Source: Escherichia phage AV110. Taken from it: a stretch of 64,000 nucleotides of DNA. The first letter of the stretch is position 1. Each line of letters opens with the position of its first letter. Below, in pieces: positions 31,803 through 40,960 of this stretch. A program made the position numbers and the translations under genes. Under the pieces are notes generated by a model. That model saw nothing but the letters and a program-made list of their open reading frames with translations. It made no database searches and had not been told where the DNA came from. The DNA lies in sequence record OR352940.1; one strand, 5' to 3'.

Positions 31803-31973
31803 TTAAAGTTTCAACAAAATTCACCAAATCATTCAGACAAGCATCAACCTGTTTTTCATAAAAGTCTTCGTTATCATTTACTGCATGATAAGCTACATCA
31901 TTCAAATCTGAATCGGCTTCACGTAAGTCACGGATAAGGTCCATCAATTTATTAGCTTGTTCACGGGTCATTT
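31797..31973 (-). CDS. small hypothetical protein (~59 aa), below ORF-track cutoff
   Basis: MTREQANKLMDLIRDLREADSDLNDV...; downstream of early promoter at 32107-32136. Confidence 0.3.
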
Positions 31974-33453: not shown

Positions 33454-34035
33454 TTATAACAACCCTGTCAAATCATTCCAATGCTTCCGGCATAATGACA
33501 CATATCTATCGGTATCACCAATTTCAATTTGACTGCCATCTGTAATTGGAAGTCCGTCTTCCGTGACTCTAGCTACCATTGTGGCCTTTTTACCACAATG
33601 ACAGACACCTTTAAGTTCAACAAGCTTATCAGCAATAGCCATTAATGCTTGAGAACCTTCAAATAGATTACCTTTAAAATCTGTTCGTAGTCCATATGCC
33701 ATTACCGGCACATTGTATACGTCAACAATACGACTAAGTTGATACACCTTTTCAGTAGTTAAGAACTGAGCTTCGTCAACAAATACACAATGAATATCCT
33801 TTTGTGCTGCAGCCCATTTATAGAATTCAAAGATATCCATGTCTTTTGTAATTATATTGGCATCCTGACGAATACCAATACGAGAGACTATTTCACCTTT
33901 TGAATCACGAGTATCAATAGCCGGTTTAAGAACTAATACACCCATGCCACGTTCTTTATAGTTATGTGCGGCAGTAAGTAATGAAGCAGACTTACCAGCA
34001 TTCATAGCGGCATATGTAAAAATTAAACTAGCCAT
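33454..34035 (-). CDS. tk: thymidine kinase
   Basis: 193 aa; Walker A MNAGKS; C-terminal CHCGKKA...CRKH zinc site; TK1-family layout. Confidence 0.9.
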   Translation of the reverse strand: MASLIFTYAAMNAGKSASLLTAAHNYKERGMGVLVLKPAIDTRDSKGEIVSRIGIRQDANIITKDMDIFEFYKWAAAQKDIHCVFVDEAQFLTTEKVYQLSRIVDVYNVPVMAYGLRTDFKGNLFEGSQALMAIADKLVELKGVCHCGKKATMVARVTEDGLPITDGSQIEIGDTDRYVSLCRKHWNDLTGLL

Positions 34036-34044
34036 AAGAGTCCC

Positions 34045-34227
34045 TTATAGTGAATTCACGTAGTCAATGAGTTCTTGTTCTTTCCTGTCAAATGATTCCA
34101 TCAATGCTTGATATTCTTCATCTGTTAAAGGAGCATATTCATCGTACGCATTGGTGGCTGCTTGCTCGTCCAATAGGTCATGGATAAGTTCGAACAGTTT
34201 AGTTTTCTCTTCTTTAGTCAATTTCAT
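34045..34227 (-). CDS. small acidic protein (60 aa)
   Basis: ORF. Confidence 0.4.
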   Translation of the reverse strand: MKLTKEEKTKLFELIHDLLDEQAATNAYDEYAPLTDEEYQALMESFDRKEQELIDYVNSL

Positions 34228-34451
34228 TTAGGTTCACCTTCTTTAACGAAATCCGGGTAAGGGTAAAATCCTGAGTAAAACCCTTCACCTTTATGATTGC
34301 TACAACCTTTGTTCGAACAGTAACACCAATAATCAAAATCACAAGCCATTTCGTCATTGCATAAAGCAAAAACTACAGGCCATTCGCATTTTTCGCATTT
34401 AGCACCTGTAAGAATTTTTGTTTGACTCATAGCCATGTCACCTTTAAGCAA
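34224..34451 (-). CDS. Cys-rich small protein (75 aa)
   Basis: CEKCEW...CNDEMACDFDYWCYCSNKGC. Confidence 0.45.
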   Translation of the reverse strand: MLKGDMAMSQTKILTGAKCEKCEWPVVFALCNDEMACDFDYWCYCSNKGCSNHKGEGFYSGFYPYPDFVKEGEPK

Positions 34452-34654
34452 TATTCTTCTACATGTTGTTTACGGCCTTTCTTATCAATAAAGGTATATT
34501 CAACGAATGTTCCAATGTAGTCTTTATCTACATCATGTGGACTATTAATTGGACATTTGGTACGACAAATGCGTTCCCATTGACGAATAATTACTGCCTT
34601 ATTCTTTGGGTCATATGGATGTGGATAATGTATATTCATAATAATGGTTCCCAA
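34427..34654 (-). CDS. hypothetical protein (75 aa)
   Basis: ORF. Confidence 0.45.
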   Translation of the reverse strand: MGTIIMNIHYPHPYDPKNKAVIIRQWERICRTKCPINSPHDVDKDYIGTFVEYTFIDKKGRKQHVEEYCLKVTWL

Positions 34655-35133
34655 TCAACAATCACAATTTCTAGTTTAGTGGAATACGTATCTAAAATCT
34701 CTTCGATGACATCCCAGTTTCCACCACCAATACCTGCACCAATTCTTGGCATATAAATTACAGGCTTTGTTATCTTATTCTTTCCGAATTCATTTAATTC
34801 TATTATACAATTCATTAAAGCAGAGTACTCAAAATTAGGTCCAGGCTCAAACTGCGTATAAAGATTAAAGCAATAAGCTTTATGGGTCTTAAAATATTTT
34901 TCATAAACCGAATAAGACCCGAGTTTAGACTCGTCTCCGAATTCGGTTTGAAGTTTATCGGCTTCTAAAATTTTTGGATAAGCCTTTGCTAATTGGCCTG
35001 CTACACCGGCGCCCATTGTATGAAAACAATTACACCCATGAGCAATATTATTACCTTTAGAAAACAGGGCGACAATATCGCCCTTGATATAGTTTTTAAT
35101 CACTTGCTGCAAGTCCTCTATTATAAGAGTCAA
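34636..35133 (-). CDS. macro-domain-like protein (ADP-ribose binding/processing fold)
   Basis: GDIVALFSKGNNIAHGCNCFHTMGAGVAGQLAKAYP and PRIGAGIGGGNWD parallel the two glycine-rich macro-domain motifs. Confidence 0.55.
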   Translation of the reverse strand: MTLIIEDLQQVIKNYIKGDIVALFSKGNNIAHGCNCFHTMGAGVAGQLAKAYPKILEADKLQTEFGDESKLGSYSVYEKYFKTHKAYCFNLYTQFEPGPNFEYSALMNCIIELNEFGKNKITKPVIYMPRIGAGIGGGNWDVIEEILDTYSTKLEIVIVDWEPLL

Positions 35134-35443
35134 CTAGACGGTCCACCATAGAATTGCATGCTGCCTTATCTTTAGGTTCCGCCACCGAGCATTCTAATAT
35201 TTGCCATTTTTTATAGTATCTTTTAATTAAGGTAGACGCCTTGAACCTACTAGACGCCCCATCTTTTTCTCCGTCTTTATACGCATATAACAATTTTTGT
35301 GAAAAATCTACTTTACACTCTTGACTTTTACCACAATAATCAGACGCCGTTCTGTTTGTATACTCCGTTACATCAGTATATGTAGTATTAGCAAGAGCGT
35401 TAAATGAAACCAAGCCAACTATTAAAGCCAACATTTTGGTCAT
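35096..35443 (-). CDS. secreted protein (115 aa) with signal peptide
   Basis: MTKMLALIVGLVSFNALA. Confidence 0.5.
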   Translation of the reverse strand: MTKMLALIVGLVSFNALANTTYTDVTEYTNRTASDYCGKSQECKVDFSQKLLYAYKDGEKDGASSRFKASTLIKRYYKKWQILECSVAEPKDKAACNSMVDRLVDSYNRGLAASD

Positions 35444-35990: not shown

Positions 35991-36449
35991 CTAGATTTTA
36001 ATCACTGCTTTAGAAGCTTTTCCTGGTAGTCGTTTACTGTTAATAATAGCCATTCTGCATTGAAGAGTCTTCATTTTGAATGCTGGATTTTCACGACAAA
36101 CTGTAAGACCTAACCAAAGATTTCCATCAGTTATTTCTAAACGGCCTGGGCGATATTCGACACCTTCGACAAAATCTTCATCAACATCTGGACGTGCCGG
36201 CATTGATAAAAATTCTGCAACTTCTTTAACATGATTTTTTACTTTATGAAATAATTCAAAAACGTAATTCTCATCTATTTCTCTCTGGATGGCACGATCT
36301 AAGAGATGTTGAGAATACTTGATATGAAAGCCTGGTAGTCCAAGAGACTTTGCAGCATCTTTTATACCGGCATTTATTTTGCGGAACTCCGTTTCAAAGA
36401 TTCGACGGAGTTTATTACGGCGGATAAAAACGTCTGAATTGATAGTCAT
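35991..36449 (-). CDS. regB: endoribonuclease RegB
   Basis: Start at MTINSDVFIRRNKLRR; 153 aa; closely matches T4 RegB as recalled. Confidence 0.85.
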   Translation of the reverse strand: MTINSDVFIRRNKLRRIFETEFRKINAGIKDAAKSLGLPGFHIKYSQHLLDRAIQREIDENYVFELFHKVKNHVKEVAEFLSMPARPDVDEDFVEGVEYRPGRLEITDGNLWLGLTVCRENPAFKMKTLQCRMAIINSKRLPGKASKAVIKI

Positions 36450-36510
36450 TTTGATTTCTCCTCTAGTTGTCATGTCTATAGTAACACAACTAGAGGAGAA
36501 GTAAACTACT

Positions 36511-36768
36511 TTATTGATAAAATGGAGTTAAAGCCCAAGATTCTTTAGATACCATATTGGCGAAATGCCTCATCTCTTCGATTTGGCGACGACGCTGGTC
36601 AGCATAGTCTTCTTCGCCTTCTTCCTTACAATCTTCAAGGTCTTCTTCAAGATACTTTAAGTATTCACTACAAATTTTGTTGACCTTTTCTTGAAAGTCC
36701 AATAACCCAGTAATAGTAGAAGCCATTAGTATTTTTCCTCGGGTCGAAATACTGCACGACAGGCCCAC
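36511..36768 (-). CDS. hypothetical acidic protein (85 aa)
   Basis: ORF. Confidence 0.45.
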   Translation of the reverse strand: MGLSCSISTRGKILMASTITGLLDFQEKVNKICSEYLKYLEEDLEDCKEEGEEDYADQRRRQIEEMRHFANMVSKESWALTPFYQ

Positions 36769-36992
36769 ATGCTGGCTTCTTTTAGATGTTGCTTAGCGTA
36801 CTTAAGAGCCTGCACTACATCCATATCTTCTTTGGTTTGTTGCTCTGTTTCATTTTCTTTCAAGATATATGCTTCTTCAATCAGAGCATCAAACATCAAT
36901 CCAAGACGGACTTCGGCATCTTTAATAGCGTTCACTTTGCCGATTTTGTCATCGGTGTGCGGTTTGTAACCTTTAATATCTTCAATCGACAT
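36726..36992 (-). CDS. hypothetical protein (start trimmed)
   Basis: ORF-track N-terminus overlaps upstream ORF; likely starts at MSIEDIKGYK. Confidence 0.4.
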   Translation of the reverse strand: MSIEDIKGYKPHTDDKIGKVNAIKDAEVRLGLMFDALIEEAYILKENETEQQTKEDMDVVQALKYAKQHLKEASMWACRAVFRPEEKY

Positions 36993-37574: not shown

Positions 37575-37883
37575 TCAATTAGAAAATAAATTTATCCAAG
37601 TTTTTTCTTTAATCAAAAATGGGACGGAATTAAACGCCATTAAACTTTGAGTGATTAATCCCTTAAACGGCCCATCAATAAATTCCATTTTGAAATGCGG
37701 AATACTAGTCATCAACCGTGCATTAGGAGCAGTACAAAGAACCTGCTGACCTGCGAACGGGCCTTTAGTCAAACGATATCGTTTAGGTTTAAAATGGTAG
37801 ATCTCGTAATTTTCTACAAGAGCCCTTTTATTGCATACTGGACTGTTATAACAATATTCAAAAACTTCAATAGTGGTCATCAT
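37575..37883 (-). CDS. hypothetical Cys-containing protein (start trimmed to MMTTIEV)
   Basis: ATG overlaps stop of upstream P-loop ORF (ATGA coupling). Confidence 0.4.
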   Translation of the reverse strand: MMTTIEVFEYCYNSPVCNKRALVENYEIYHFKPKRYRLTKGPFAGQQVLCTAPNARLMTSIPHFKMEFIDGPFKGLITQSLMAFNSVPFLIKEKTWINLFSN

Positions 37884-38419
37884 TGCATTCCAATCACAAA
37901 AAATTGAGGACGAGCAATACCGCCGCTGCAATATTTGCTTTTGCAACAGTGTTGGACTGTTTTGATATGGATGTCGTAAATCTTATCCATATCAGGAGCT
38001 TTAATAGGCTCGTCAATTATGTACAGAATACGAGAAAGCGTTAATCCACGGAATTTATATCCTTCATTACCAATAAAACTACGGACAGAATCAGTAAATA
38101 AACGGAATCGAATATCATCGCTAGAATAACGAGAAAATTCTTTTTCAATGTTGCCAGCAGAAATTTTAGAATAAGCTGAAGTATTAGAAAGAACAATAAC
38201 TGTTCCACCGTCATACAGCCAATTAACAGCAAAATTAGTTACTGCGGTCGATTTACCTGATTGTCTGCCGCCGTCTAAACGAAGTGTACAGTACTGCTTG
38301 AGTACGTCTTCAAATGGTGGGGCATAACCGTTCTTACAAATTTCTTCTACTCTAGCATCAGAATGGTGTGTAAAAGCATTCATCAGGGATAGATAAGGTC
38401 CAGTTAAAAATGTTCTCAT
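37880..38419 (-). CDS. small P-loop NTPase (179 aa)
   Basis: Walker A GGRQSGKST; Walker B-like LYIIDEP. Confidence 0.55.
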   Translation of the reverse strand: MRTFLTGPYLSLMNAFTHHSDARVEEICKNGYAPPFEDVLKQYCTLRLDGGRQSGKSTAVTNFAVNWLYDGGTVIVLSNTSAYSKISAGNIEKEFSRYSSDDIRFRLFTDSVRSFIGNEGYKFRGLTLSRILYIIDEPIKAPDMDKIYDIHIKTVQHCCKSKYCSGGIARPQFFVIGMQ

Positions 38420-38747
38420 ATTATTTCTCTTAAGGTTGGGGCCATTCCATGGCGCATGAATTGTCCATTTCTGTATTTACCCATTACCGCACTTGGGCTC
38501 GACCTTATTACAGGTTGGCGGGAATCCCTCATAGAATCATGAGGTCCAGGTTGTTCCCATTTTATTTGAATGTAAATATTTTTGCCACGCGTTTACGAAT
38601 TATACCAAAAAACACGTGGCAATTCACAGTATTCGGCGATTAAATGTTGATCAGCAAATTTAGATACTAAAGTCAAATTAATATAAGTCATTTACCCATC
38701 CAAGTAATTATGAATATACTATCACAATTCTAGGAGAAAGTAAACTG

Positions 38748-39050
38748 TTATTTACCTTTAATTACTTTAGCTGCTTCGATAGCCGCTTGCTGAAGGTCAT
38801 CCATAGACATACCGAATTTAGAAGCAAAGTTATCAATTTTCTTTTCGACAGCATTCAAAGGCTTGGCCTGTTTACCTTCATTAGCGCCAGGAAGAGCGAG
38901 AATACGCTCTTTGTCAATATAAAGGCTTACAAGTTTCTTACGGTCTTTATCGGACAAATCATGAAATGAATGGGCCTTTTTATTTATAGCGGCTTCTAAT
39001 TTACCTGCACTCACTCGAGCTTCAGTAATAAATTCTTGATATGTTTTCAT
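38748..39050 (-). CDS. capsid-targeted internal protein (IPII/IPIII-like)
   Basis: N-terminal capsid-targeting sequence MKTYQEFITE (T4 IP consensus MKTYQEFIAE, cleaved by prohead protease after Glu). Confidence 0.65.
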   Translation of the reverse strand: MKTYQEFITEARVSAGKLEAAINKKAHSFHDLSDKDRKKLVSLYIDKERILALPGANEGKQAKPLNAVEKKIDNFASKFGMSMDDLQQAAIEAAKVIKGK

Positions 39051-39076
39051 TTTTGTTCCTATTGTTTTAATTTATG

Positions 39077-39391
39077 TTATTCTTTAGGGAAGTTTTTAGA
39101 GTATGCGTCATAAAGTTTATTACCGATGCGACGGAAAACTTTAGCTGCAAAACGGTTTTCAGGGTTTTTAATCATGATTTGCATCATGTAAGTTCCTGCA
39201 TCCGAAAGAGCTTCTTCATAGTACCCATTAATTTCTTTAAGAGTCCTACGTTTACCACCAGGACCATCGACAGTAATTTTCCATTTACCTGTAGAAGTGC
39301 GGCTCGGTGGCTCAACTTGTTCAATCCAAATATAACCACCTTCAACGCGTTGGTTGGCGGATTCTGCAATAAATTCTTTATACGTTTTCAT
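39077..39391 (-). CDS. capsid-targeted internal protein
   Basis: N-terminal MKTYKEFIAE CTS. Confidence 0.65.
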   Translation of the reverse strand: MKTYKEFIAESANQRVEGGYIWIEQVEPPSRTSTGKWKITVDGPGGKRRTLKEINGYYEEALSDAGTYMMQIMIKNPENRFAAKVFRRIGNKLYDAYSKNFPKE

Positions 39392-39454
39392 TTTTGTTTC
39401 CTTGTTTGTTTTGATAGAGTAATTATACCATATTAATACTTAAGCGTAAACAAT

Positions 39455-39715
39455 TTAAGCTTTACCGCCAGAAATAATTCCGAAGTTGTTAAAATCGTAT
39501 CCAATATCGTCAACATCTACTTTAGGACTTGCTACAACATAAGCAATTTCACTACGTTTTGCATAGGTGTTGATTTCTTTACCATCGCCACCTAAGAAAG
39601 AATACCCATTACGTTTTAATGAGCCAAAGTCTTCCGCATCACCAATGAAAGCTTTAACTTTAAATTTAGGACCTTTGGCATCTGCTTCAGCGATAAATTC
39701 TTGATACATTTTCAT
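39455..39715 (-). CDS. capsid-targeted internal protein
   Basis: N-terminal MKMYQEFIAE CTS. Confidence 0.6.
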   Translation of the reverse strand: MKMYQEFIAEADAKGPKFKVKAFIGDAEDFGSLKRNGYSFLGGDGKEINTYAKRSEIAYVVASPKVDVDDIGYDFNNFGIISGGKA

Positions 39716-39721
39716 TTTTCC

Positions 39722-40135
39722 TTAGTAAATTGATTTACCATAGTATTTGTACCAAGTCGGACGTTGAGCAATTTTTTCATCTAAGCGTGCTTGACTTATC
39801 GCAATGGACGCTTCGGACGGGACATAATTATTACGAAATTCGGCAGGGATGTCGGAAATATCCTGGACAGTCGTGTCCTTGATTTTGAAACCACGTTTCA
39901 AGCATTCAGCGATTAGCTCGATTTGTCGTAAACGTAAAAATTCGAGTTTGTCGTAAAAGAATGTTACGTGACCTGTGCCTAAGATAAATGTTGGAGAGAT
40001 TTTAAAATCCTTTACACGTTTACCGTTTTGAACATGTTTACGGACTGCACCAAATACGCGTGGTAATTCACGATACTCAGCCATAAGATGTTGGTCGGCC
40101 AGTTCAGAAACAAGTGTTAAATTGATACGGGTCAT
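39722..40135 (-). CDS. denV: endonuclease V (pyrimidine-dimer DNA glycosylase) DenV
   Basis: Start at [35 protein letters not shown]; near-identical to T4 DenV as recalled. Confidence 0.92.
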
Positions 40136-40193
40136 AATTTCCTCCAAGTAGTTGATGAATGTATAGTATCAAAACCCTTGGAGGAAGTAAACA

Positions 40194-40475
40194 CTATTTT
40201 TCTGAAGCGCCTGAAATATATTTTTCAAGACGTTGTTTCATTAGCGAGCCGTTCTTAGCGATTTCTTCCGGTTTATCGCACATACGCAACAAGGCTTCAA
40301 GCTTAGCGATATCGCTGGTACGTTCAAATTTGCGAGTATCTATCTTACTAGCAAGTTCAGAAATACGTGCTAATAGACTTTCGGCTTCAACCAAAGCTGC
40401 ACCTAGCTTAGTTGCAAATGTGTCAGTAGCTTCGTTAAGAATAGATTCTGATAAAAATTCACTATATGTTTTCAT
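40194..40475 (-). CDS. capsid-targeted internal protein
   Basis: Start trimmed to [13 protein letters not shown]; ATG overlaps lysozyme stop. Confidence 0.6.
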
Positions 40476-40960
40476 ATATACGCTTTCCAAGTTCCTGTTT
40501 TAAATGTTGAGATTACTCGTTTCGCGCGATTAGGTGTCTGACGATACCATTTAGATTGGGCTAGATTTACTGCCGCTTCATCCCAACGTTTCTGTTGAAG
40601 CATACGAAGAGAATTAGTAAAACCGGCGACGCCTGCTACACCCATTTGGAAGACCATATTGACCAATGCACAACGACGAACTGCATCTAAAGAATCATAC
40701 ACCGGTTTAAGTTTAGCATTACCCAAGATTCCGCGAACGGCTTTATCAACGTCTTCATTAAATAGCTTTTCAGCCTCATCAAGGGTAATTGTACCGTTGC
40801 ATTTACGGCCGATCATTCTGTCAAGTTCAGCTTTAGCTACGGCTAAAGACGGGTTCTTTGTTACTAAATGGCCAATGCCAATCGTCCAAAAGCCTTCAGT
40901 GTCTTTGTATAAAGTCAGTCTAAGACCTTCGTCATTACGAAGCATTTCAAATATATTCAT
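40472..40960 (-). CDS. e: endolysin (T4 lysozyme e homologue)
   Basis: Start at [32 protein letters not shown]; catalytic Glu/Asp context; close to T4 lysozyme. Confidence 0.93.

Follow-up and report, generated by a model that had tools for sequence, protein, structure and literature searches.

A predicted stand-alone macro domain in the tk–regB interval of Escherichia phage AV110 and its orthology with T4 Tk.4/AdfM

Background

The interval between tk and regB of Escherichia phage AV110 (sequence record OR352940.1) contains an open reading frame (ORF) with two glycine-rich motifs, which raises the question of whether its product is a macro domain and, if so, on which ADP-ribose marks it would act during infection. 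The initial annotation of the 64,000-nucleotide stretch of DNA analyzed here, hereafter the window, put forward several roles for this protein: the reversal of DarT-type ADP-ribosylation, the sequestration or hydrolysis of ADP-ribose-derived signals, and the editing of marks made by phage ADP-ribosyltransferases.

The idea of a macro domain at this locus is already known. The T4 reference genome has long annotated tk.4 as "phosphatase; contains A1pp phosphatase motif", and many other phage records label the gene as "macro domain protein", "ADP-ribose binding module" or "Poa1p-like". A functional assignment has become available through HIDEN-SEQ (bioRxiv 10.1101/2025.11.20.689424), in which a T4 transposon library was challenged on a DarTG2 host and tk.4 emerged as the single significant hit. 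A clean tk.4 knockout sensitized T4 to DarTG2, and the gene was renamed adfM, for anti-DarT factor Macrodomain; the authors propose that enzymatic removal of ADP-ribose from DNA "seems likely". This evidence for T4 comes from a preprint and pertains to one DarTG2 system assayed at 30 °C in minimal medium (10.1101/2025.11.20.689424). A further factor of this kind had been predicted from the AdfN work, since T4 without adfA and adfN was still resistant to DarTG2.

Two other macrodomains are relevant to the interpretation of this gene. Phage PhiKZ encodes gp104, also named AdfM, which strips DarT2-installed ADP-ribose from a TNTC oligonucleotide in vitro, rescues DarT2 toxicity and is required on DarTG2 hosts (Cell Rep 2026, PMC13309987). 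Streptomyces coelicolor SCO6735, the one ALC1-like macrodomain known without a catalytic lysine, carries Gln85, neutralizes DarT and hydrolyzes DarT-made dT-ADPr faster than DarG does; hydrolysis is lost in its Q85A variant and nearly lost in N27S, and catalysis has been proposed to be water-mediated. In this work we delimit the AV110 gene, establish the fold and family of its product, and weigh the functions that have been suggested for it.

Methods

All coordinates are those of the window, and residue numbers throughout refer to the 155-aa form of the protein. A family alignment of 90 members, reaching down to 35% identity, was used to derive a profile that was searched against PDB sequences. 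The register of the active-site strand was taken from the HMMER profile alignment and from hhalign, both of which reproduce the equivalence published on structural grounds. Two other alignments were discarded: a local MAFFT alignment of the phage protein with DarG, TARG1 and gp104, in which the NLYTQ/FPTK strand was two residues out of register, and a single-sequence phmmer alignment to BT1257, in which the same strand was mis-registered and the loop gap was not opened.

Results

The maximal ORF at this locus spans 34636..35133 (−) and would encode 165 aa from a TTG codon. Homologs, most of them ~150–160 aa long and some up to ~180 aa, yield alignments that begin at ORF residue 11, and in T4 an in-frame TAG stands immediately 5′ of the tk.4 ATG. 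RefSeq annotates a 468-nt version of the gene (155 aa) in the near-identical phage APCEc01, and a Shine-Dalgarno-like GAGGA (35114..35118, −) lies 10 nt upstream of a GTG codon, the same motif occupying the same place in T4. Taken together, these observations indicate that translation most likely covers 34636..35103 (−), reading 155 aa from the GTG at 35103 to a TGA stop; the homolog alignments, the T4 TAG and the RefSeq form argue against the 165-aa TTG start. The ORF reported by the initial annotation is hence a real one, on the minus strand, but its 5′ limit was probably set too far out. The upstream extension (35104..35133, −) coincides with the 3′ end of vs, and these 30 nt probably belong to vs only and are not translated within the macrodomain protein.

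At its 3′ end the macrodomain gene shares an ATGA with tk.3, its own TGA overlapping the tk.3 start codon, and at its 5′ end the start region overlaps the stop codon of vs; such tight packing is typical of T4 early-gene clusters. In the closest GenBank relative, EP32a (OR544954.1, 4237..4617), the gene is annotated as a 381-nt, 126-aa "ADP-ribose binding module" with an internal Met as its start; the HGCNC motif is thereby lost, in disagreement with the 155-aa form of T4 and RefSeq APCEc01. A promoter-like TTGTGA-18-TATTAT (34638..34667, −) that matches the consensus weakly lies in the 3′-terminal 30 nt of the gene, immediately before tk.3, and an early promoter has been predicted at the equivalent place in phage fPS-2. 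A sigma-70 promoter scan of the region returned 17 sites against 17.0 in shuffled sequence, that is, no excess.

The protein is a genuine macro domain. Both glycine-rich motifs invoked by the initial annotation are present exactly in the ORF, HGCNCFHTMGAGVAGQ at 34993..35040 (−) and PRIGAGIGGGNWD at 34711..34749 (−), and the macro-domain call made from them is right by sequence and by predicted fold. The profile matches go far beyond what chance would give. With 27.4 bits (E 3.6e-6), Pfam Macro (PF01661) exceeds its gathering cut-off of 22, residues 32–146 covering profile positions 2–117 of 118, and PHROG 335 matches with an E-value of 1.5e-66. Searched against PDB sequences, the family profile retrieves the solved macrodomains Bacteroides BT1257 (2.6e-17), TARG1 (4.2e-17), SCO6735 (2e-14), Poa1p (6.2e-14), Mtb DarG (5.5e-14) and Taq DarG (6.4e-12), and the sole PADLOC match is to the macro part of the DarG model (E 8.8e-9; positions 4–145 of 329).

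A fold search, which had been suggested as a check, gives the same answer: the AlphaFold2 model (pLDDT 95.4, pTM 0.91) has the three-layer alpha/beta/alpha architecture of a macro fold. Its best Foldseek matches are TARG1, Poa1p, Taq and Mtb DarG, and BT1257, all with probability 1.0 and TM 0.69–0.80, and every PDB match listed by Foldseek is either a macrodomain or a design built on a macrodomain-like scaffold (probability 1.0, TM 0.58–0.80). The segments MGAGVAG (residues 30–36) and IGAGIGGG (121–128) stand in the order expected of the ADP-ribose- and phosphate-binding loops. Each lines up with its counterpart in TARG1 and BT1257, and conservation within the family is 90% or higher.

Within this fold, HGCNCFHTMGAGVAGQ corresponds to the first ADP-ribose loop and includes H22 and N25, which are equivalent to H24 and N27 of SCO6735 and to the catalytic-site Asn of DarG and PhiKZ AdfM. 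PRIGAGIGGGNWD forms the second, phosphate-binding glycine-rich loop, which is conserved and aligned with known macrodomains, and the NLYTQ segment (34852..34866, −) contributes the invariant N80, Y82 and Q84. Among the 90 family members, Q84, N80, Y82 and D49 are found in all, N25 in 89 and H22 in 88, with G31, G33 and A35 conserved in at least 90%; the window protein carries every residue that reaches this level of conservation in the family.

Q84 sits at the position of the catalytic lysine of TARG1 (K84), DarG (K80) and PhiKZ AdfM (FPTK). The HMMER profile alignment places T83 and Q84 of the N-L-Y-T-Q strand opposite T83 and K84 of TARG1, and pairs N80 and Q84 with the first and last residues of NMIGQ in BT1257; hhalign places Q84 opposite the Lys of the gp104 FPTK. 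The BT1257 NMIGQ aligns in turn with NMIGQ in SCO6735, the Gln being residue 85 after subtraction of a 20-residue tag. As judged from these alignments, the T4-type family has an invariant glutamine in place of the catalytic lysine, as does SCO6735. The Lys84/Asp125 catalytic dyad of TARG1 is absent, with K84 opposite Q84 and D125 opposite G126 in the profile alignment, and His23 and Ser30 of Poa1p stand opposite H22 and T29, the same histidine being present also in the DNA-acting SCO6735. At residue 127 (34723..34725, −), in the phosphate loop, 92% of family members have Gly (GAGIaGG) and T4 has Lys (GAGIGKG). The window protein follows the consensus with G127, and it is the T4 allele that is atypical.

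The protein is 85% identical to T4 Tk.4 over 155 of 155 residues without a gap. The 3.1 kb around the gene are 99% identical to Mosigvirus (RB69 group) Escherichia phages such as EP32a and APCEc01, and ~79% identical to T4. Matches to T4 proteins place the genes of the window in the order rI, rI.1, tk, tk.2, a zinc-binding ORF, tk.3, tk.4, vs, vs.1, regB, vs.3, vs.4, vs.5 and vs.6, in which tk.3-tk.4-vs-vs.1-regB is identical to T4. The location first assigned to the gene holds, since tk (33454..34035) and regB (35991..36452) flank it. On the basis of identity and gene order, we assign it as the Mosigvirus (RB69-like) syntenic ortholog of T4 tk.4. Relatives are widespread, with tblastn detecting them in 2,796 of 50,697 phage records from many host genera.

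The 5′ end of the gene contains an 8-bp GC-rich hairpin, AGGGCGAT-ATT-GTCGCCCT, followed by a T-run (35066..35084, −; codons 7–14 of tk.4/adfM). Of the 4,608 synonymous ways to encode KGDIVAL, 99.6% give a less stable structure than this one (−13.0 kcal/mol; top 0.4%). T4 shares the stem base for base, as do many T4-like contigs with as little as 55–61% identity in the protein; the third loop base varies among T4-like contigs, and two lineages have a compensated stem, from U.G to U-A in one (L039) and from C-G to A-U, along with an Ala-to-Ser change, in the other (L042). The fPS-2 record annotates a terminator at this spot, and other lineages lack the hairpin. Such a structure may act as a terminator or attenuator after vs, attenuating read-through from vs into adfM.

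Between tk and adfM lie a DUF7438 protein orthologous to T4 tk.2 (34045..34227, −), a Cys-rich Phage_zn_bind ORF of 68 aa (34224..34430, −; Pfam 101 bits, PHROG 2306) and the tk.3 ortholog, a DUF7202 protein (34427..34639, −). The initial annotation had considered these small ORFs as further anti-defense candidates, but they match only DUF7438, Phage_zn_bind and DUF7202, and no defense link was found for them. T4 has nothing comparable to the zinc-binding ORF in this interval, and the sole match to T4 tk.1 is weak (33%) and lies outside it (31804..31971). The tk.3 ortholog is 100% identical to T4 in amino acids and 97.2% in nucleotides, as against 69–81% nucleotide identity in its flanks (tk 77%, tk.4 81%, vs 69%), which suggests either a recent exchange between the T4 and RB69 lineages or an unusual constraint.

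The kind of anti-defense sponge that the initial annotation placed in this interval of T4 is present in the window, but beyond regB and hence outside the tk–regB interval. It is the ortholog of Vs.4/Acb2, a cyclic-oligonucleotide sponge against CBASS, located at 36726..36989 (−) with 64 bits to Pfam Acb2_Tad1_hairpin and 65.5% identity to T4 Vs.4. The valyl-tRNA synthetase modifier vs (35096..35443, −) is 68% identical to its T4 counterpart, which was the most strongly depleted gene in minimal medium and whose deletion impaired plaque formation on M9-glucose (HIDEN-SEQ, 10.1101/2025.11.20.689424).

Farther along, T4 Vs.8 matches the window in two pieces within 37883..38532 (−), residues 1–35 at 38428..38532 and residues 38–219 at 37883..38428, which meet at 38428 in different frames; the longest ORF (37880..38419) begins at about residue 41, and the break could mean that the gene is frameshifted or split, or that the sequence contains an error. 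An internal-protein cluster (38608..40490, −) comprises four small genes starting with MKTYQEFI, MKTYKEFI, MKMYQEFI or MKTYSEFL, a type of start that we take to be the T4 capsid-targeting leader. These genes are interleaved with denV (39722..40147; T4 denV match at 39725..40135), an extra copy of whose first 28 codons adjoins ipII at 38608..38691, and the order of the region is unlike the vs.8-denV-ipII of T4.

Discussion

Our analysis of the window establishes the domain identity, fold, orthology, synteny and active-site residue conservation of this protein. The gene is the Mosigvirus Tk.4/AdfM ortholog, and we consider it probable that it encodes an orphan-antitoxin-like glycohydrolase that removes ADP-ribose from thymidines in phage ssDNA. 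Reversal of DarT-type ADP-ribosylation, the first of the roles originally offered, has since gained genetic support for the T4 ortholog from HIDEN-SEQ and the knockout. Given its orthology with T4 tk.4, the most likely role of the window gene is to shield the phage from DarTG2 through removal of ADP-ribose from ssDNA thymidines, and by analogy the window allele would have the same activity.

DarT2, the toxin of the host toxin–antitoxin defense DarTG2, ADP-ribosylates thymidines at TNTC motifs in phage ssDNA and thereby blocks replication. In the proposed mechanism, the macrodomain would accommodate the ADP-ribose between the two glycine-rich loops, hydrolyze the thymidine-ribose bond and so restore the DNA. 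Its site would be of the SCO6735/BT1257 type, in which Q84, held by N25, would position the distal ribose in lieu of a catalytic lysine.

Comparison with known systems helps to place the protein. Like T4 Tk.4/AdfM, it lies between tk.3 and vs with the same overlapping start and stop, and all family-conserved residues are common to both; the two differ by 23 substitutions, with G127 for the T4 Lys, and by a GTG rather than ATG start. With SCO6735 and BT1257 it shares the Gln at the catalytic-Lys position and the conserved Asn and His (N27 and H24 in SCO6735), and BT1257 is its best PDB sequence match. However, identity to these proteins, both of them cellular rather than phage-encoded, is only ~25–28%. 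The mobile loop of the SCO6735/BT1257 subclass is ~5 residues longer than that of DarG and TARG1, whereas the phage family has a 6-residue gap with respect to BT1257 directly after QFEPGx, that is, no extended mobile loop. The DNA-positioning lysines of SCO6735, K34 and K89, are likewise replaced, by A32 (S32 in T4) and G88. With these lysine equivalents changed and the mobile loop missing, the way in which the phage protein holds DNA may differ from that of SCO6735.

DarG (PDB 5M31/5M3E/5M3I) resembles the phage protein in fold, in ligand loops and in the expected reaction, the removal of ADP-ribose from ssDNA thymidine. Unlike DarG, the phage protein has no C-terminal DarT-binding domain and has Gln for Lys80 in 90 of 90 family members. 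Its score with the DarG NCBIfam model NF048014 is 32 bits, where the equivalog cut-off is 250, and it covers model positions 4–146 of 338 only; there is no darT beside the gene, whose neighbors are vs and tk.3. PhiKZ gp104 is also a phage-encoded, stand-alone macrodomain countering DarTG2, but it stands close to DarG (Mtb DarG at E 9e-25; catalytic Lys in FPTK), and its identity to the T4-type family is only ~21%, with an hhalign probability of 96.5%. The two AdfM proteins belong to different subfamilies and, though they have a name in common, are not orthologs. T4 AdfN (gp30.3, NADAR) offers a parallel in that a lytic phage carries an orphan antitoxin-like ADP-ribosylglycohydrolase, in this case acting against DarTG1, yet it has an unrelated NADAR fold, is guanosine-ADPr-specific and does not counter DarTG2. 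The fairest description is that of a protein predicted to be DarG-like in its working, chemically closest to SCO6735, and belonging to a phage subfamily of ALC1-like macrodomains.

Protection might instead be mainly stoichiometric, through binding and inhibition of DarT2 ("interaction-inhibition") rather than DNA de-ADP-ribosylation. Catalytically dead SCO6735 Q85A, DarG K80A and TARG1 K84A still inhibit DarT in vitro, SCO6735 most strongly, and AdfA and AdfB, other small phage anti-DarT proteins, work through toxin binding. We nevertheless judge this account unlikely. The 155-aa protein, which matches only positions 4–145 of 329 in the DarG model, lacks the domain with which DarG binds DarT, and its catalytic set (H22, N25, Q84 and the glycine loops) is kept across diverse phages and hosts, hence across different DarT variants, a pattern more readily expected of an enzyme directed at a substrate than of a binder specific for one toxin. 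Protection would thus come through catalysis rather than through toxin binding.

A different substrate for such an enzyme has also to be considered. Likeness to yeast Poa1p (E 1e-8 by sequence, TM 0.80 by fold), the H-x-C-N-C motif common to both, the placement of H22 opposite Poa1p H23, and database labels such as "phosphatase" or "O-acetyl-ADP-ribose deacetylase" would suit an ADP-ribose-1''-phosphate phosphatase or a general ADP-ribose-metabolite hydrolase clearing small molecules. These labels, however, are homology transfers, DNA-acting macrodomains are equally or more similar when the family profile is searched against PDB sequences, and the sole known phenotype of the ortholog is DarTG2-specific. 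We know of no infection-specific source of Appr-1''-p, and on balance regard this function as very improbable. There is a similarly slim chance that the protein erases other ADP-ribose marks or signals, such as those that Alt, ModA and ModB of the phage itself leave, the ADP-ribose that defense toxins such as CmdT attach to RNA, or the ADP-ribose-derived immune signals of Thoeris. ALC1-like macrodomains often act on multiple substrates, and SCO6735 also acts on PARP1 automodification, but the Alt/Mod enzymes modify arginine, and to our knowledge macrodomains do not reverse arginine ADP-ribosylation. The T4 screen, moreover, returned tk.4 under DarTG2 only, and CmdTAC is reported to remain a robust defense against T-even phages carrying the macrodomain gene (PMC11618068).

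Returning to DNA de-ADP-ribosylation as the preferred reading, a broader scenario can be outlined, which we regard as possible but doubtful. The T4-type family could constitute a separate, lysine-independent lineage of DNA de-ADP-ribosylases, Gln-based like SCO6735 but with a short loop, that phages recruited independently of the DarG-like PhiKZ AdfM. Its substrates might extend beyond DarT2-modified thymidine, and its expression might be gated by the hairpin or attenuator in the first 50 nt of the gene.

Conclusions

The finding is already known, through the long-standing annotation of the gene and the 2025 functional assignment of its T4 ortholog, and for a family annotated in thousands of phage genomes the present result is mainly confirmatory. 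It does make apparent that two non-orthologous phage macrodomains bear the name AdfM, the T4/RB69 type with Gln and the PhiKZ type with a catalytic Lys, and that the chemistry of the former probably resembles that of SCO6735. RB69-group phages, which serve as a DarTG1-sensitive model, carry an intact copy of the gene and would therefore be predicted to resist DarTG2.
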